Part shown: positions 49,328 through 59,065 of the stretch, piece after piece
How positions within the stretch are numbered: the stretch's first letter is position 1
Layout: every line of letters starts with the position of its first letter
Origin: an uncultured Gemmatimonadales bacterium
GTDB lineage: Bacteria; Gemmatimonadota; Gemmatimonadetes; Longimicrobiales; RSA9
NCBI GenBank assembly: GCA_963708135.1
Contig: OY970192.1
Coordinates: 544,001 to 608,000 of the forward strand
DNA: 64,000 bases
Reading direction: 5' to 3'
Made by a program: the position numbers and the translations under genes
The notes under the pieces: model-generated
Databases searched by the model: none
What the model was told of the DNA's origin: nothing
What the model saw: only the letters and a program-made list of their open reading frames with translations

Positions 49328-50722
49328 ATGAACAACAGAACCCAAGACCGGGCCGCCTGCGGGGCGTTGGTGCGCTTCGCCCTGCTGGGCGGCATCCTGG
49401 TCCTCCCCCTGGCGGGCTGCGGCTCGGACCTGCTCAAGGTGACGGACCCGGACATCGTGACGCCCTCGAGTCTCTCCGGAGACATCGGCCTCAAGACCCT
49501 CTACGCCGGCGCCGTCGGAGACTTCGAGCTCGCCTATCAGGGCGGCACGGGCAACGGCAGCTTCCCGGACAACGTGGTCACAGCAGCCTCACTCATGTCG
49601 GATGAGACGATCCTCTCCGGCACCTTCCCGACGCGCACGGAGTTCGACCAGCGCAGCATCGACGTGAAGAACGGCACGCTGAGCGGCATGTTCTTCCGCC
49701 TCCAGCGTGCCCGCGCCTCCACGGAGAACGCGGCGGCCGCGATCGCGGATGCGGCGGGCGCGGCCGGCGATTCCCGGGTCGGCCGTCTCAGGGGGCTGGA
49801 GGGATTCGCCTACTTGGGATTCGCCGAGAACTACTGCGACGGCGTCCCCTTCAGTACGGCGGATGCGAGCGGCAATCTGACTTACGGCGAACAGCAGTCC
49901 AACGCGGACATCCTGACCGCGGCGGTCACGCTATTCGACAATGCCGCCGCCGCCGCCGCCGGCGACGCCGACGTGAACAACCTGGCTCTGGTCGGCAAGG
50001 CGCGTGCGCTCCTCGACCTCGGGCAGTACGCCAATGCCGCGGCCGCCGCCTCCCAGGTGCCGACCGACTTCGTCTACAACCTGGAGCCATCCATCAACTC
50101 GTCCACGCTCGGCTTCTCTCTCGAGAACGGCTTCTACAGCGCGAACACCGCGCAGCGCCGCCTCTCTGTCGCCGACGCGCAGGGGGGCAACGGCCTGGAT
50201 TTCCGTACGGCCGGCGACCCGCGCGTGCCCGTTGAGGAGAATCCGCAGGGCGGCTTCGACTCGACCAGCAAGCAATACAACCTGATCACCTTCGCGCAGA
50301 ACGGCGAGACGCTCGGCCGCGAGGCCAAGTTCCCTCTGGCCAGCGGCATCGAGGCCCGGCTGATCGAGGCCGAGGCCCGCCTGCAGGCGTCCGACGCGGC
50401 CGGGATGCTCAGCATCCTGAACGACCTCCGCGCCACCATGGCGGGTCTCGATCCCCTTACGGATCCAGGCACGCAGGCCGCCCGCGTCGATATGCTCTTC
50501 CGCGAGCGCGCCTTCTGGCTCTACGGCACCGGGCATCGTCTGAGCGACCTGCGCCGGCTCGTCCGGCAGTACAACCGCGACGCCGAGTCGGTCTTCCCAA
50601 GCGGAACGTACGAAAAGGGCGGATCCTACGGCTCGGATGTGAACTATCCGATCCCGTTCAACGAGCTCAACAACCCCAACCTTCCCACGAACGGCGAAAC
50701 GTGCACGGACCGGAGCGCCTGA
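49328..50722 (+). CDS. SusD/RagB-family lipoprotein
   Basis: Lipobox LAGC; LIEAEA, ERAFWL..TGHRL.DLRR, YPIP..E..NPN; follows SusC. Confidence 0.88.
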   Translation: MNNRTQDRAACGALVRFALLGGILVLPLAGCGSDLLKVTDPDIVTPSSLSGDIGLKTLYAGAVGDFELAYQGGTGNGSFPDNVVTAASLMSDETILSGTFPTRTEFDQRSIDVKNGTLSGMFFRLQRARASTENAAAAIADAAGAAGDSRVGRLRGLEGFAYLGFAENYCDGVPFSTADASGNLTYGEQQSNADILTAAVTLFDNAAAAAAGDADVNNLALVGKARALLDLGQYANAAAAASQVPTDFVYNLEPSINSSTLGFSLENGFYSANTAQRRLSVADAQGGNGLDFRTAGDPRVPVEENPQGGFDSTSKQYNLITFAQNGETLGREAKFPLASGIEARLIEAEARLQASDAAGMLSILNDLRATMAGLDPLTDPGTQAARVDMLFRERAFWLYGTGHRLSDLRRLVRQYNRDAESVFPSGTYEKGGSYGSDVNYPIPFNELNNPNLPTNGETCTDRSA

Positions 50723-53746: not shown

Positions 53747-55075
53747 TCAGACGTCCATCGGGACGAGCTCCGGCGCCACCCTCCCGTTCCCGTTCGAAAC
53801 GGCCTTGCCGTTGGCGGAGGCCTTCCCGCCGCCCCGGCGGCCGTTCCCATTGCCGTTCGCGCTCCCGCCGGTCCGCGTCTTCGCGCTTCCATCCGGCTTC
53901 GCGCCGGCGGCGCCGCCCACCGGCGCTCGGCCGTTCCCGCGCCCCCGCCCGGCCGGCTTTCTGCCGATCGGGATCACACCCGTCTCCGCCGCGATCTCGC
54001 AGCCGCCCTCGCCCGGTACCGTATCCGGCTTCGGCAGCGGGTAGCGGTAGATGTCGCCCGCATAGTTGCGGAGCACGACCTCGCTGTCGGTGACCGACTG
54101 CACGTACTCGGGGAGGATCGGGATCTTGCCGCCGCCCCCGGGCGCGTCGATGACGAAGTGCGGCACGGCCAGGCCGCTGGTCCAGCCGCGCAGGGCGCGG
54201 ATGATCTCGATGCCCTTCTCGAGCCCCGTGCGGAAGTGCTCGCCGCCCGCCACCACGTCGGCCTGGTAGATGTAGTAGGGCCGCACGCGCGCCTTCACGA
54301 GCCGCTGCATGAGCTCCTTCATCACCATCGGGTCATCGTTCACGCCCTTGAGCAGCACCGTCTGTGAGCCGAGCGGTGCGCCGGCATCCGCCAGCATGCC
54401 GAGCGCCTTCACCGCCTCCGGCGTGAGCTCGTCGGGATGGTTGAAGTGCACGTTGATGTAGACCGGGTGGTACTTCTTCACGATCTCGCACAGCTCGGGC
54501 GTGATGCGCTGCGGCAGGTGGCTCGGCATGCGCGAGTGGATGCGGATGATCTCGAGGTGCGGGATCGCCCGTAGTGTGGACAGGAAATACTCGATGCGCC
54601 GGTCCGAGAGCATGAACGGATCGCCGCCGGACAGGATCACGTCCCGCACTTCGGTGTGCTCGCGCAGGTACGCGAACGCGGAGTCGAACTGGTTCAGCGG
54701 GATCTTCTCCGGGTCGCCCACCTTGCGTCGCCGCGTGCAGAAGCGGCAGTAGGTCGAGCAGACCGGCGAGATCAGGAACAGCACGCGGTCCGGATAGCGG
54801 TGCGTGAGGTTCGGCACCGGCGAGTCCGCGTCCTCGTCCAGCGAGTCCACGATCCCGTCGTGCACCTCGTTCTCCGCGCCCGTCGGCACGTACTGCCGCC
54901 AGAAGGCGTCGCCCGGCGCCTTGATCTGCGCCAGCGCCGCCGGAGTGATCCGCAGGTTGAAGGTGTCGATCGCCCGCTGCACCGCGTCGCGGTCGATGTT
55001 CTCCGCGCCGAACCGCTCGACGAGATCGTCGACGGTGGTGACGCTCTCACGCAGAATGTCTTGCCATTTGTCCAT
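53747..55075 (-). CDS. kamA: KamA-family radical SAM enzyme, probable lysine 2,3-aminomutase
   Basis: THRYPDR, CSTYCRFCTRRR, SGGDP, HFNHP, RPYYIYQAD, FVIDAPGGGGK (PLP lysine). Confidence 0.92.
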   Translation of the reverse strand: MDKWQDILRESVTTVDDLVERFGAENIDRDAVQRAIDTFNLRITPAALAQIKAPGDAFWRQYVPTGAENEVHDGIVDSLDEDADSPVPNLTHRYPDRVLFLISPVCSTYCRFCTRRRKVGDPEKIPLNQFDSAFAYLREHTEVRDVILSGGDPFMLSDRRIEYFLSTLRAIPHLEIIRIHSRMPSHLPQRITPELCEIVKKYHPVYINVHFNHPDELTPEAVKALGMLADAGAPLGSQTVLLKGVNDDPMVMKELMQRLVKARVRPYYIYQADVVAGGEHFRTGLEKGIEIIRALRGWTSGLAVPHFVIDAPGGGGKIPILPEYVQSVTDSEVVLRNYAGDIYRYPLPKPDTVPGEGGCEIAAETGVIPIGRKPAGRGRGNGRAPVGGAAGAKPDGSAKTRTGGSANGNGNGRRGGGKASANGKAVSNGNGRVAPELVPMDV

Positions 55076-55077
55076 TT

Positions 55078-55656
55078 TCAGGCCCGCCCAGATTCGAGTT
55101 GGATGCGCTTGGAGTAGATGACACGGTCATCGCCGTCCGAGTAGAAGTCCGGGACTCGTGCAACCTCGCAGTATCCGCGCCGCAGATAGAACTGCCGTGT
55201 CGGCTCATAGAACGGCTGGGACGAGGTCTCGATAATCACGAGTCGTGCATCCGTGCGGGCAAGCCTTCGCTCCACCTCCTGTAGCAGTCGGGTGCCGACC
55301 CCCAGGTTCTGCGCCGCCGGCGAGACCGCGATCCAGTACAGATCAATGGTGCCCGCCGTGAGCGGCGTGGGGCCGTAGCAGACGTAGCCGAGCAGGTCAC
55401 CCTCGGGGGTGAAGGCGCCCAGGACGGTGTAGTCCTGCTCGGGTGCGACGAAGTAGGCATCCAGCACGTCCAGCGCGACGCCGATCTCCTCGTCGCGGAA
55501 GAAGCCGGTCTCGCGCAGCAGCCGCTCGACCTTGCGGCGGTGGCGCCGATTGAGCGCCCGGAGCGCGACGGGCTCGGGGCTCTCCGCGGCGGCCGGGTCA
55601 CCCGCGCGGGCGTGCGTCGCCTCGGCGCGCGCGTTCGGCTCATTTGGCGTGCTCAT
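55078..55656 (-). CDS. GNAT-family N-acetyltransferase
   Basis: DLYWIAV, QNLGVGTRLL (acetyl-CoA motif A), IETSS, FY..RGY; ATGA overlap with upstream ligase. Confidence 0.9.
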   Translation of the reverse strand: MSTPNEPNARAEATHARAGDPAAAESPEPVALRALNRRHRRKVERLLRETGFFRDEEIGVALDVLDAYFVAPEQDYTVLGAFTPEGDLLGYVCYGPTPLTAGTIDLYWIAVSPAAQNLGVGTRLLQEVERRLARTDARLVIIETSSQPFYEPTRQFYLRRGYCEVARVPDFYSDGDDRVIYSKRIQLESGRA

Positions 55657-56612
55657 GCGGCCTCCCGCACGATGCGCTCGACCAGCTCCGCGTAGCCGAG
55701 GCCGTCGGCGGCGGCCATGCGGGTGAGGCCGGCGGAGGGTGCCAGGTCCGGGTTCGGGTTCACCTCCAGCACGAAGAGCCGGCCGTCGGCGTCGCCCCGC
55801 AGGTCCACCCGCCCGTAGCCCCGCCCCTCGACGGTGGCCCAGGCGGCCAGGGCGAGGCGGCGCGCCTCCGCCAGCATCTCGGGCGCGAGCGGCGCCGGGC
55901 AAAGCGGCACGGTGGCCAGGTCCTCGACCGACCCAGGCGCCCACTTGGCCGCATAGCCGACCATCGGCCAGCTGCCCTCGGGCGTGGCGGCGAAATCGAT
56001 CTCGGCCACGGCCAGCACGCGCTCGCCGACGATCCCGACGTTCAGCTCGCGGCCGCGCAGGAACTCCTGCACGAGGAGCGGCGCGTGCTTCCACCCGGCC
56101 GTGAGGGCGCGCTCCAGCTCGGCCGCATCGCGCGCGACGCACGCCTGCGTGATCCCCACGGAAGCGTCCTCCGCGGCCGGCTTCACGATGGCGGGGAAGC
56201 GGTTCCAGGCCGGCGCGGTGGCGCCCTCGGCGGACGCCGTCCAGCTCGGCACCGGCACGCCCGCCCGCTCGAGCAGCGCGTTCGTCCGGTCCTTCCGGCG
56301 CGCGAGGGCCAGCGTCTCGGCCCCGCTGCCGGTGAGCGGCAGCCGCATCAGCTCGATGACGGCGGCCACCCGCGCCTCTCCCGCACTCGACCCGGCGGCG
56401 CCCTCGCACAGGTTGAAGACCAGGTCGGGCGCGGCGTCTCGCAGCGCGCCGACCCACGCGTCCACATGCGCGCCCACGCCCACGCGGACCGGCGCGTGGC
56501 CGAGGTCGCCGAGCGCCACGTCCACGGCCTCCACCGCCTCGAGGACGCCGCGCTCATCGGCGGTGGCGCCCGCGCGGGCGTCCACGTCGTCGTACAGCAC
56601 GGCGATCCTCAT
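55653..56612 (-). CDS. Ddl-like ATP-grasp ligase B (non-canonical)
   Basis: FNLCEG, LTGS, IVKP..EDAS.GI, QEFL.GRE, Y.AKW, GRVDLR, LEVNPNP; lacks the GGxSxE and LHG motifs of Ddl. Confidence 0.88.
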   Translation of the reverse strand: MRIAVLYDDVDARAGATADERGVLEAVEAVDVALGDLGHAPVRVGVGAHVDAWVGALRDAAPDLVFNLCEGAAGSSAGEARVAAVIELMRLPLTGSGAETLALARRKDRTNALLERAGVPVPSWTASAEGATAPAWNRFPAIVKPAAEDASVGITQACVARDAAELERALTAGWKHAPLLVQEFLRGRELNVGIVGERVLAVAEIDFAATPEGSWPMVGYAAKWAPGSVEDLATVPLCPAPLAPEMLAEARRLALAAWATVEGRGYGRVDLRGDADGRLFVLEVNPNPDLAPSAGLTRMAAADGLGYAELVERIVREAA

Positions 56613-57688
56613 GGCCGGATCCCGTAGCGCCGGAGCGCGAAGCCGAGCACCAGGTTCAGCATCTCATCGTAGCCGATGCCCGCAGCGCGCGCCGCCTTCG
56701 GGAAGCAGGAGTTCTGCTCCGGTCGCGGCAGGATGCCCGGCAACGGATTGATCTCGATCACCTGCGGCGCGCCGGCCTCGTCCAGACGCAGGTCCACGCG
56801 CGCCCAGTCCCGGCAGCCCAGCGCGTGAAAGGCCGCGAGCGCGGTCCGCGCGAGCGCGCCGCTCAGCGCCTCGTCCACCTCCGCAGGGCACTCGAAGATC
56901 CGCAGCGGCGCCTCCTCGGTGTCCCATACCCACTTGGCCTCGTAGCCGTAGAGCGGAGCGGCCCCCGACGGCAGGGCATCGAAGCGGATCTCGACCGGTG
57001 GCAGAGCGATCGCCTCCGCGCCGTTTCCGAGGACCGCCAGCGTGAACTCGCGGCCGGGCAGGAAGCGCTCGACCAGCGCCGGCTGCCCATACTCGGCCGC
57101 GATCTCCTCGACGCGTGCGCCCACCATCGCCGCCGTCGTGCAGAACGCCCGCTCCGGGATCCCCTTGCTCGAGCCCTCGAAGAGCGGCTTGACGACGACG
57201 GGCAGCGCCGGCCTCCCGGGTGCGCCTCCGTTGCCCGCCCGCCCCCGGCTGCCGTCCACGACGGCGAACGCGGGCGTGGGCACGCCGCGCGCGAGCCAGA
57301 CCTCCTTGGCCCGCCGCTTGTCCAGCGCGAGCGCCAGCGTCAGCGGGTCGCTGCCCGTGTACGGGATGTCGTAGAACTCGCAGATGGCCGGGACGTGGGC
57401 CTCCCGGTTCGGGCCGTAGAGCCCTTCCGCGATGTTGAAGACAATGTCGGGGTGGGTCTCGCGGAGCACCAAAGGAAAGTCCGCATTGGCCTCCATGCGG
57501 ACGACGGTGCCGGCGCGGCGGAGCGCCGCCTCGACGGCGGCGATGGTGGCGGGCTCGTCCCACTCCGCGTAGCGGTCGTGGGACGGCGCGTGCGGAGGGC
57601 GCCCCCCGCCGGGAGGCTCCTCGCTACTGGGAGGCTCTTCGTCCTCCCCTGGCTTCTCGTTGTATGCGAACCCGATCCGGAGCGTCAT
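56609..57688 (-). CDS. Ddl-like ATP-grasp ligase A (non-canonical)
   Basis: FNIAEG, IPYTGS, DK..AK, VVKP..EGSSKGI, ERFLPGREFT, YEAKW, ARVDLR, IEINPLPG; lacks the GGxSxE and LHG motifs. Confidence 0.88.
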   Translation of the reverse strand: MTLRIGFAYNEKPGEDEEPPSSEEPPGGGRPPHAPSHDRYAEWDEPATIAAVEAALRRAGTVVRMEANADFPLVLRETHPDIVFNIAEGLYGPNREAHVPAICEFYDIPYTGSDPLTLALALDKRRAKEVWLARGVPTPAFAVVDGSRGRAGNGGAPGRPALPVVVKPLFEGSSKGIPERAFCTTAAMVGARVEEIAAEYGQPALVERFLPGREFTLAVLGNGAEAIALPPVEIRFDALPSGAAPLYGYEAKWVWDTEEAPLRIFECPAEVDEALSGALARTALAAFHALGCRDWARVDLRLDEAGAPQVIEINPLPGILPRPEQNSCFPKAARAAGIGYDEMLNLVLGFALRRYGIRP

Positions 57689-57718
57689 CGCTGCCTTGCG
57701 TCCCCTCGGCGTACCCCT

Positions 57719-57750
57719 AAGAAAAAGCGCGTCTCCCTCGCGAAGACGCG
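57719..57750 (-). terminator. Intrinsic terminator inside the 5' leader of the ligase-GNAT-kamA operon
   Basis: On the - strand, CGCGUCUUC-GCGAG-GGAGACGCG (9 bp) then CUUUUUCUU, ending 30 nt before the first ATG. Confidence 0.8.
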
Positions 57751-57825
57751 GCTGCCGTCGGTCGCGCCGCTCGGCGGCGGCGCAAGTCCCGTGCTCGGCT
57801 GCACGGAACCTCTCGTTTTTGCCCC
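57751..57825 (-). ncRNA. Candidate cis-regulatory leader RNA (riboswitch/attenuator) with twin NGCCGA-loop hairpins
   Basis: 11-bp hairpin 57811-57784 (loop AGCCGA) abutting a 7-bp hairpin 57783-57764 (loop CGCCGA), located between promoter and terminator. Confidence 0.55.
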
Positions 57826-57830
57826 GCACC

Positions 57831-57859
57831 AGTATAGCGCCGCGCCGCGCTGGATGGAA
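57831..57859 (-). promoter_or_regulatory. Putative sigma70 promoter of the ligase-GNAT-kamA operon
   Basis: TTCCAT-17-TATACT on the - strand. Confidence 0.6.
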
Positions 57860-57952
57860 GGGCCATGTGCCGTCGTCCGTTGCCGCCGTTGCACCCCTCG
57901 GGCTAGCTTCCCCGCCGGGACGAACTTGCACGGGGAAAGGGCAGATCGAGTC

Positions 57953-59065
57953 ATGCCGACCCTCACGATCGCGCCGCCTCCCGACGAGGCGGCGCCCTAC
58001 GCGGTGCACATCGAGGCGGGCGTGCTGGACCGCCTTCCCGGCGTGCTCTCCGCCGCCGCCCCGGCCCATCGCTACGTCATCGTGACGGACGGGGTCGTGA
58101 ACGCCCTCCTCGGCGCGCGCGTGGCGGGGGTGCTCCGCGACGCCGGGCTGCGCGTCAACATCGTGCCGGTGCCCGCCGGCGAGGCCGCCAAGACGATCCG
58201 CACATGGGAGGAAGTCCAGGAGGCCATGCTCGGGCTCGGCGTCGGCCGCGACGGCTGCGTGCTCGCGCTCGGCGGCGGCGTCGTCGGCGACCTGGCCGGC
58301 TTCGCCGCGGCCACCTACCTGCGCGGAATCCCCGTGGTGCAGGTGCCGACCACGCTGCTCGCGATGATCGATGCCTCCGTGGGCGGGAAGACGGGCGTGG
58401 ACACGCGCGCGGGGAAGAACCTGATCGGCGCGCTCCACCAGCCGCGCGCGGTCGTGGCCGACCCGGAGGTGCTCGCCACGCTCCCTGCTTCCGAGCTGCG
58501 CTCCGGCCTGGCGGAGGCGCTCAAGCACGGCGCCATCCGGGAGCGCGCCTACCTGGAGTGGATCGTGGCGCACGCGGCGGACGTGCTCGCGGGCGACGTC
58601 GCCATCCTCACCGAGCTCATCGCCCGCTCGGTCCGGATCAAGGCCGCGTTCGCGGCCGCCGACCCGCGCGAGGCCGGCCCCCGCCAGGCCCTCAACTTCG
58701 GCCACACGATCGGCCACGCCATCGAGGCGCTCACCGGCTACGCTCTGCGTCACGGCCACGCCGTCGCGGTCGGGATGGTGGCCGAGGGCGCGCTGGGCGA
58801 GCGCATCGGCGTGAGCACGCCCGGCACGGCCGCCGTGCTGCGCAGCGCCGTCGAGGCGCTCGGCCTGCCCGCCCGCGTCCCTGCCGGCATCGCACCCGAC
58901 GACATCCTGGCCGCCGTCCGTGCCGACAAGAAGGCGCGCGCATCCCGCCCCCGCTACATCCTCCTGCGCACGGTCGGCGAGATCGCGCGCGCGCCGGACG
59001 GCGCCTGGACCCACCCCGCCGACGACGCCGCCGTGCGGACGGCGCTCTCGATCCCGGACCGCTGA
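57953..59065 (+). CDS. aroB: 3-dehydroquinate synthase
   Basis: GE.AK, GGGVVGDLAGFAAA, PTTLLAMIDASVGGKTG, EALKHG, LNFGHTIGHAIE, HG.AV; upstream TTGCCG-18-TAGCTT. Confidence 0.96.
   Translation: MPTLTIAPPPDEAAPYAVHIEAGVLDRLPGVLSAAAPAHRYVIVTDGVVNALLGARVAGVLRDAGLRVNIVPVPAGEAAKTIRTWEEVQEAMLGLGVGRDGCVLALGGGVVGDLAGFAAATYLRGIPVVQVPTTLLAMIDASVGGKTGVDTRAGKNLIGALHQPRAVVADPEVLATLPASELRSGLAEALKHGAIRERAYLEWIVAHAADVLAGDVAILTELIARSVRIKAAFAAADPREAGPRQALNFGHTIGHAIEALTGYALRHGHAVAVGMVAEGALGERIGVSTPGTAAVLRSAVEALGLPARVPAGIAPDDILAAVRADKKARASRPRYILLRTVGEIARAPDGAWTHPADDAAVRTALSIPDR

Follow-up and report, generated by a model that had tools for sequence, protein, structure and literature searches.

Conserved promoter and terminator, and variable RNA between them, ahead of a four-gene ligase operon in an uncultured Gemmatimonadales bacterium

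In this study, we analyzed the leader of a four-gene operon, headed by a Ddl-like ATP-grasp ligase gene, in a 64,000-nucleotide (nt) stretch of DNA from an uncultured Gemmatimonadales bacterium (positions 544,001 to 608,000 of contig OY970192.1, assembly GCA_963708135.1; the whole stretch is hereafter called the window). A reading of the letters alone had proposed that two adjoining hairpins in this leader form a new riboswitch (the original prediction). We found that the promoter motif, the terminator and the position of the terminator beside the ribosome-binding site were conserved among orthologous leaders, whereas we found no conservation of an aptamer, an antiterminator or an upstream reading frame. 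Such a combination of a conserved promoter, terminator and ribosome-binding site with variable RNA in between fits an attenuator and does not fit a ligand-sensing leader. On this comparative sequence evidence, we regard the leader as a probable attenuator, an intrinsic terminator close to the promoter that has been kept with the operon and lacks a ligand-sensing fold. We infer that transcription would actually terminate at this site and that read-through would be regulated.

Conserved promoter and terminator

All elements listed in the original prediction, from the promoter to the spacing before the ATG, were present at the predicted places on the minus strand (MFE, minimum free energy):

57859-57854, minus strand: -35-like hexamer TTCCAT, read from the sequence; it belongs to the conserved CTTCC(A/C)T motif
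57836-57831, minus strand: -10 hexamer TATACT, read from the sequence; spacer from TTCCAT of 17 nt
57811-57784, minus strand: hairpin 1, 11 pairs including G-U, loop AGCCGA; MFE -16.8 kcal/mol
57783-57764, minus strand: hairpin 2, 7 pairs, loop CGCCGA; MFE -13.9 kcal/mol; it adjoins hairpin 1 (0 nt between)
57763-57751, minus strand: linker GACCGACGGCAGC, 13 nt; together with the end of hairpin 2 it contains the sub-clade motif GCGCGACC
57750-57719, minus strand: intrinsic terminator, hairpin 57750-57728 followed by CTTTTTCTT; matched by the terminator scan
57718-57714, minus strand: AGGGG, a conserved Shine-Dalgarno-like block directly 3' of the T-run

TTCCAT agrees with TTGACA at only three of six positions, and the general promoter scan therefore missed this promoter. 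The terminator has the form of a G+C-rich hairpin directly followed by a U-tract, as expected of an intrinsic terminator: the hairpin contains nine pairs, six of them G-C, with a loop of five (MFE -16.2 kcal/mol), and it is one of two terminator-like sites within 4 kb. Runs of five or more T are rare in this genome (321 on both strands of 5.4 Mb at 72% G+C). The end of the T-run lies 30 nt from the ligase ATG at 57688, and a second copy of the purine-rich block, GAGGGGA, together with AAGG, stands closer to the ATG than AGGGG does. Between T-run and ATG (57694-57718, minus strand) we also observed a near-tandem repeat, AGGGGTACGC / AGGGGACGC, followed by AAGG; the three purine blocks of this segment resemble the terminator 3' arm GGAGACGC, and the orthologous leader L050 has the same repeat layout.

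For comparison, a search of 60 related genomes gave 21 ligase orthologues at 58-74% identity, to which 80 genome contigs and 80 metagenome contigs were added; these 181 sequences included 174 with a placeable start codon and yielded 139 unique leaders. Set A comprised 39 Longimicrobiales-type leaders including that of the window (close orthologues and contigs whose ligase is at least 60% identical); two of these leaders, L041 (G016) and L047 (G019), belong to genomes marked as unpublished. Set B comprised 58 Gemmatimonadales leaders, defined by the promoter word CTATTGYG, and the other 42 leaders formed the remainder. The orientation of upstream genes was judged by a codon-phase test. No ligase relative above about 74% protein identity was found in the genome or metagenome collections, and a DNA search with the leader itself in the 60 related genomes returned only short G+C-rich matches, three of which lay at orthologous terminators.

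First, a hairpin with a T-run within 60 nt of the start codon was found in 32 of the 39 set A leaders at -6 kcal/mol or better (31 at -10 kcal/mol), as compared with 1/39 in the reverse complement and 0-2/39 in each of five shuffles; without L041 and L047 the count was 31/37. The distance from the end of the hairpin to the start codon was 16-39 nt, with a median of 29 nt. Since the upstream gene was divergent in 30 of the 39 close leaders, this terminator does not serve to end an upstream gene. In an alignment of 33 sequences the terminator helix was 83.5% paired, five of nine pairs changed on both sides, and U-A and U-G alternated at one position; the MAFFT alignment mixed two registers at the terminator, so the fit is understated. 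These U-G wobbles, together with the complementary insertions that lengthen the stem in set B (see below), indicate pairing in RNA on the minus strand, and a reading of the terminator as a DNA palindrome (operator) is disfavoured by the U-G positions.

Second, a covariance model of the terminator block (R1) returned this leader as its sole site genome-wide (E 2.5e-11, as compared with 0.04 for the next match). The idea of a regulon was rejected, as the model found no second site in the genome. In relatives, the strong matches were ligase leaders, and the few others were ordinary terminators after rpmA and tRNA genes and a second copy of the leader located at the end of one contig. This copy, in one related metagenome-assembled genome (L222; G033:C117:1-200, minus strand), carries TTCCAT-N17-TATCTT, the terminator and the T-run, which suggests either a further copy of the operon or a strain variant.

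Third, the promoter-like motif CTTCC(A/C)T-N16-19-TAnnnT was present in 25 of the 39 set A leaders, a count that is partly circular because the sites were picked by pattern; similarly, TA...T was invariant among the 25 aligned sites, which had themselves been chosen by that pattern. Both the promoter and the leader terminator of the original prediction are thus kept in orthologous leaders. The junction with the ribosome-binding region also followed lineage: the T-run continued into C(A/G)TAGGGG in Longimicrobiales-type leaders and into GTAGGAGG in Gemmatimonadales leaders. The set B leaders are only about 25 nt long, with the promoter TTGCGC-N17-TATTGT and a GACCG...CGGCC hairpin whose stem is lengthened by complementary insertions, then T5-7 and GTAGGAGG, touching the ribosome-binding site. 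By pattern match, 55 of 58 set B leaders had this hairpin, T-run and GTAGGAGG.

However, several observations weigh against this reading. The energy-based finder passed only 36/58 set B leaders at -6 kcal/mol, and the upstream gene was co-directional in 54/58 of them (thyX in L090), so that the hairpin could also serve to end that gene. Seven of the 39 set A leaders failed the terminator test, either because the T-run had decayed while the hairpin was kept (L031 and L051), because the layout was different (L036, L132 and L134) or because nothing was found (L041 and L061). Among the leaders of other phyla, 38/42 failed, and the four positives correspond to the background level. In addition, the rpmA and tRNA terminators of relatives resemble the leader terminator (GCGCGTC...GACGCGC, T-run, CGTGG); conserved stem sequence need not mean specific recognition, and it may simply be the usual terminator style of the clade. 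Finally, a strong terminator with no visible means of bypass is odd, and there may be a sensor that we did not see.

The RNA between promoter and terminator

No part of the region between the conserved ends was kept across the leaders. The distance from the -10 hexamer to the terminator was 26-138 nt in set A, and some leaders had only about 20 nt ahead of the terminator. No hexamer was shared beyond chance, the most widespread one occurring in 10 of 24 leaders, which equals the shuffle maximum. GCGCGA (8/24) marks a sub-clade only, and GCGACC was found 12-14 nt ahead of the terminator in 5/24. The segments before the terminator showed no excess folding (mean z -0.24, none of 20 below -2; coding control -0.75). 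The 5' arm of the terminator likewise paired with upstream sequence no more readily than with shuffled sequence, in the proportion of arm bases paired (0.62 vs 0.58, n=24) as well as in the energy gained on adding the arm (-3.75 vs -4.14 kcal/mol; median rank 0.50; none of 33 at a rank of 0.05 or below). In the window the arm was freer than in 96% of shuffles (antiterminator rank 0.96, worse than shuffles), which suggests that the twin hairpins, if anything, protect folding of the terminator.

The twin hairpins themselves are stable. With 200 dinucleotide shuffles per segment, hairpin 1 had a z of -4.55 and hairpins 1 and 2 together -3.91 (0/200 shuffles as good in both cases), hairpin 2 alone -2.26 (7/200) and the terminator -2.48 (5/200), and the three-hairpin layout was the centroid of the 104-nt leader. 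Folding of the 104-nt leader as a whole was unremarkable (z -1.88), as was that of a 145-nt stretch (z -1.16). The 3' arm of hairpin 1, GAGCACGRSAMTTGC, was found again in L031, L222 and, in part, L032, three leaders that come from two genomes, and two of its pairs were compensatory relative to L222 as judged by eye; hairpin 1 is, from this comparison, a real local hairpin and not a shared sensor. Hairpin 2 had no counterpart in the nearest leaders; L056 has ACTTGCGCGACC where the window carries the additional hairpin, which looks like an insertion relative to L056.

Three further devices were considered and rejected. Pairing between the A-run and the U-run, and pairing of ACUUGCG with CGCAAGG at the ribosome site, were both present in the window and, by eye, not general across leaders. 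In reiterative transcription of the pyrG type, a G-run at the transcription start pairs with a pyrimidine-rich 5' arm; the start in the window lies near GGGGC, whereas the starts of other leaders do not.

Read-through and rival explanations

Under the attenuator reading, transcription would start a few bases past TATACT, and the polymerase would pass about 70 nt of lineage-specific G+C-rich hairpins before meeting a hairpin of 9-12 pairs and then U5, directly past which the ribosome-binding region begins. Since no second promoter fits between the U-run and the ribosome-binding region, every operon transcript should be a read-through product. Read-through might be a fixed leak, or it might be altered through an influence on the polymerase or on termination as a whole; we lean slightly toward a changeable level. 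The conservation pattern argues against a ligand-binding leader fold as the determinant of this level. The twin hairpins would then be local filler that at most prevents competition between the terminator and upstream G+C-rich sequence.

Two well-known systems illustrate such an arrangement. The Escherichia coli ampC attenuator is a leader intrinsic terminator without a riboswitch, and it shares with the present leader the promoter, the short leader, the hairpin and U-run just ahead of the ribosome-binding site and, by our reading, expression by read-through; it differs in that no mini-reading frame or ribosome site is conserved beside the hairpin here. At the phage lambda PR'-tR' region, a short RNA is made unless Q modifies the polymerase at the promoter. 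The likeness consists in a conserved promoter region and a nearby downstream terminator, with the RNA in between free to vary; on the other hand, we identified neither a Q-like factor nor a binding site or promoter-proximal pause signal here, and the initial transcribed region is not conserved.

The terminator might be pictured as the point of action of an antitermination mechanism that works without a sensor in the leader RNA, an idea that we regard as rather unlikely but worth keeping in mind. Candidates would be a factor loaded at the unusual CTTCC(A/C)T element, or termination that responds to a physical cue, ionic strength for example, and such control logic would travel with the beta-amino-acid ligase operon across phyla; besides Gemmatimonadota, these would include the lineage of Desulfuromonadales, where a new riboswitch-like RNA would do the equivalent task. 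A literature search on potassium glutamate and intrinsic terminators gave nothing usable among the matches listed. Of trans-acting proteins, two NusG-family genes were found in the genome, and CsrA, CAT_RBD and Hfq were not.

Antitermination by a receiver-ANTAR protein that binds both hairpins and prevents termination is very unlikely. The tandem hexaloop hairpins before the terminator do have the layout of the targets of EutV, NasR and AmiR (PMC3369931), in this window only, and the genome encodes one ANTAR protein, a receiver-ANTAR response regulator at 640.6 kb, 39 kb away and outside the window, beside a HisKA_2 kinase gene. ANTAR genes were also present in 34/36 genomes of this family, among them all 21 with a ligase orthologue at 58-74% identity, as compared with 0/12 and 1/12 genomes in two sampled sister families. 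According to Ramesh 2012 (PMC3369931), however, ANTAR targets are two hexaloop stem-loops with A1 and G4 in both loops, a linker of 5-12 nt in eut and a second hairpin that overlaps the terminator at its 5' base; a linker of 2-25 nt is given for actinobacteria in Mehta 2021 (PMC8164766). By these descriptions, AGCCGA and CGCCGA agree at one of four A1/G4 positions (A1 in one loop, G4 in neither), no nucleotide separates the two hairpins, and the 13-nt linker holds hairpin 2 clear of the terminator base. Moreover, orthologous leaders do not keep the hairpins: dual AnnGnn hairpins occurred in 1/33 close leaders vs 0.68 in shuffles. At the 364 terminator-like sites of the genome, canonical ANTAR dual hairpins gave three weak candidates, none of them convincing. 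ANTAR genes were found in 13 family genomes without a 58-74% ligase orthologue as well (G009 and G034 still have a 40-41% match), and three of three examined set B genomes, all carrying the leader terminator, had no ANTAR match, their completeness not being given. As a separate observation, the region 640.1-644.5 kb (L223:2608-3300 and neighbours) contains the receiver-ANTAR gene, then a receiver-HisKA_2 kinase gene, and a convergent glutamine synthetase gene.

The riboswitch of the original prediction, in which the twin NGCCGA hairpins would bind a ligand and switch a GCGGC/GCCGC antiterminator against the terminator, is highly improbable. It has in its favour the stability of both hairpins, five of six loop letters and the closing GC...GC in common, and a low prior chance of an adjacent pair, given that 54 of the 18,495 hexaloop hairpins with at least seven pairs in the genome carry this loop. 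No known RNA family accounts for the hairpins: Rfam gave no match at the gathering score in the whole window, a single chance match inside a coding region and none on the leader at E <=10 (57400-58200), and no match on twenty orthologous loci; no paper on this leader was among the matches listed in a literature search on riboswitches in Gemmatimonadetes. Furthermore, the orthologous operons of Desulfuromonadales do have a covarying structured leader (see below). However, the selection proposed to act on the shared loop finds no support, since twin NGCCGA loops were absent from all 32 other terminator-bearing close leaders, the nearest leader (L033, protein 74% identical) has quite different hairpins with loops UGCGGU and AUGA, and NGCCGA is not enriched among hexaloop hairpins of the genome (54 observed vs 41 expected from loop composition). 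Some leaders have hardly any room ahead of the terminator, hairpin 2 looks inserted, and excess structure is lacking. The GCGGC/GCCGC complementarity exists, but the pairing behind the proposed antiterminator is no better than in shuffles, as its rank in the window shows; the CGGC/GCCG complementarity between linker and loop is likewise present, but both amount to only 4-5 G+C pairs within G+C-rich sequence. In short, neither an aptamer whose sequence and structure are shared by the orthologous leaders nor a mutually exclusive antiterminator/terminator platform was found, and the twin hairpins, confined to this genome, fall short of the conservation on which the original prediction itself had made the riboswitch depend.

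The guanidine-II (mini-ykkC) riboswitch, whose two hairpins both have ACGR loops, resembles the leader in having a pair of small, similar hairpins that share a loop. It differs in that AGCCGA and CGCCGA are not ACGR, RF01068 gave no match even at E <=10 and the hairpins are not conserved. These loops follow neither the guanidine-II nor the ANTAR rules, as the original prediction had stated.

Attenuation by a ribosome on a leader peptide is likewise highly improbable. In its favour, a 39-codon frame starting at GTG 57803 is preceded by GAGAGG, encodes Pro-Pro-Pro over hairpin 2, crosses the terminator and stops at a TGA that overlaps the ATG of the ligase gene; in addition, some bacteria modify EF-P, the factor that relieves stalling at polyproline, by beta-lysylation. 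On the other hand, 5/24 leaders have no frame across the terminator, Gemmatimonadales leaders have no upstream frame by eye, and the varying length of the T-run shifts the frame. The peptides are alike only in their ...AFS or ...FFI ends, which are forced by the T-run, and Pro-Pro(-Pro) occurred in 3/24, as expected from CCG-rich DNA. Of the hallmarks of a trp-type leader, neither a conserved frame with regulatory codons nor the set of 1:2, 2:3 and 3:4 pairings was found, and there was no 2:3 signal. Finally, a separate small RNA of about 105 nt lying ahead of the operon by chance is scarcely credible: promoter and terminator do delimit a short transcription unit, but the RNA body has kept neither its sequence nor its length or structure, and the element always adjoins the ribosome-binding site of the operon and has no second copy in the genome.

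The operon and its leaders in other lineages

The genes of the operon and the divergent gene upstream of it are as follows:

56609..57688, minus strand: Ddl-like ATP-grasp ligase, first gene; Pfam Dala_Dala_lig_C, E 4.5e-29; below every NCBIfam Ddl cut-off
55653..56612, minus strand: second Ddl-like ATP-grasp ligase, by Pfam; below all NCBIfam Ddl cut-offs
55078..55650, minus strand: GNAT acetyltransferase, start uncertain; Pfam Acetyltransf_1, E 9e-11
53747..55075, minus strand: KamA-family radical-SAM 2,3-aminomutase; Pfam LAM_C and Radical_SAM; passes the KamA subfamily model
57953..59065, plus strand: aroB (3-dehydroquinate synthase), divergent upstream gene; NCBIfam aroB 351.7 bits, above the cut-off of 305

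The best NCBIfam match of the aminomutase, lys_2_3_AblA (AblA-type lysine 2,3-aminomutase), scored 445 bits and thus fell short of the cut-off of 525. The second ligase adjoins the first in nine related genomes and also in L090. This type of operon is widespread, and its product probably has beta-amino acid content. Literature searches found nothing on aminomutase, ATP-grasp and beta-lysine among the matches listed, and no paper on the operon among those listed for aminomutase, ATP-grasp and compatible solutes. The position of the operon behind a conserved terminator points to tight control, and read-through of one hairpin would offer a simple handle for finding the inducing condition. With the riboswitch claim dropped, no ligand screens are needed on twin hairpins that are confined to this genome.

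A better riboswitch candidate than the twin hairpins is found in Desulfuromonadales, whose orthologues of the operon have a different conserved leader in the roughly 160 nt ahead of the ligase start. BLAST matches to it were obtained in 37 of 201 genomes of the order, and of 30 loci inspected (L224-L253, e.g. L224:1443-1604, minus strand; it also occurs in L082, L118, L121, L126 and L210), 29 had a ligase match downstream, 27 of these within about 320 nt; in the exception, L233, the contig ends just past the start. The leader reads ...GCGUAACGACC..AGCAUAAAAAG[YRACCC]CUUUUUAUAGCC...GCCGCCAGGC...GGCUUUUAAAAGGGGUU..AUG and had no Rfam match at the gathering score or at E <=1. RNAalifold on 28 sequences gave 20 pairs, nine of them with compensatory changes, in two covarying helices. 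An invariant AAAAAG/CUUUUU hairpin competes with the pairing of ACCCCUUUU to the ribosome site AAAAGGGGU. The two leaders belong to the same operon and both place control in the 5' leader; that of Desulfuromonadales, unlike the present one, is about 160 nt long and conserved in sequence, with covarying helices and an anti-Shine-Dalgarno strand and without a terminator, and no homology between them was seen by eye. We regard it as a candidate for a new riboswitch-like element, and as a better place to seek a ligand that would report on the pathway.

A diverged second copy of the core of this leader (L254:100-290, in G061) stands before genes of the MgtC family, a C39-like peptidase and a RimK-like ATP-grasp protein (RLAN); the Desulfuromonadales element may control more than one ATP-grasp ligase system. 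In Bacteroidota/Ignavibacteria orthologues (L078, L106, L109 and L125), another leader, conserved by eye, was observed about 130 nt upstream of the ligase; it follows TTGACA-N17-TATATT, reads GUUCAUUGAAA ... AAAGGUUGAAC, and had no Rfam match. Elsewhere in the window, an open reading frame at 49328-50722 (plus strand) begins with a lipoprotein-like signal sequence, and reading of its translation led us to guess at a likeness to SusD/RagB-type proteins.

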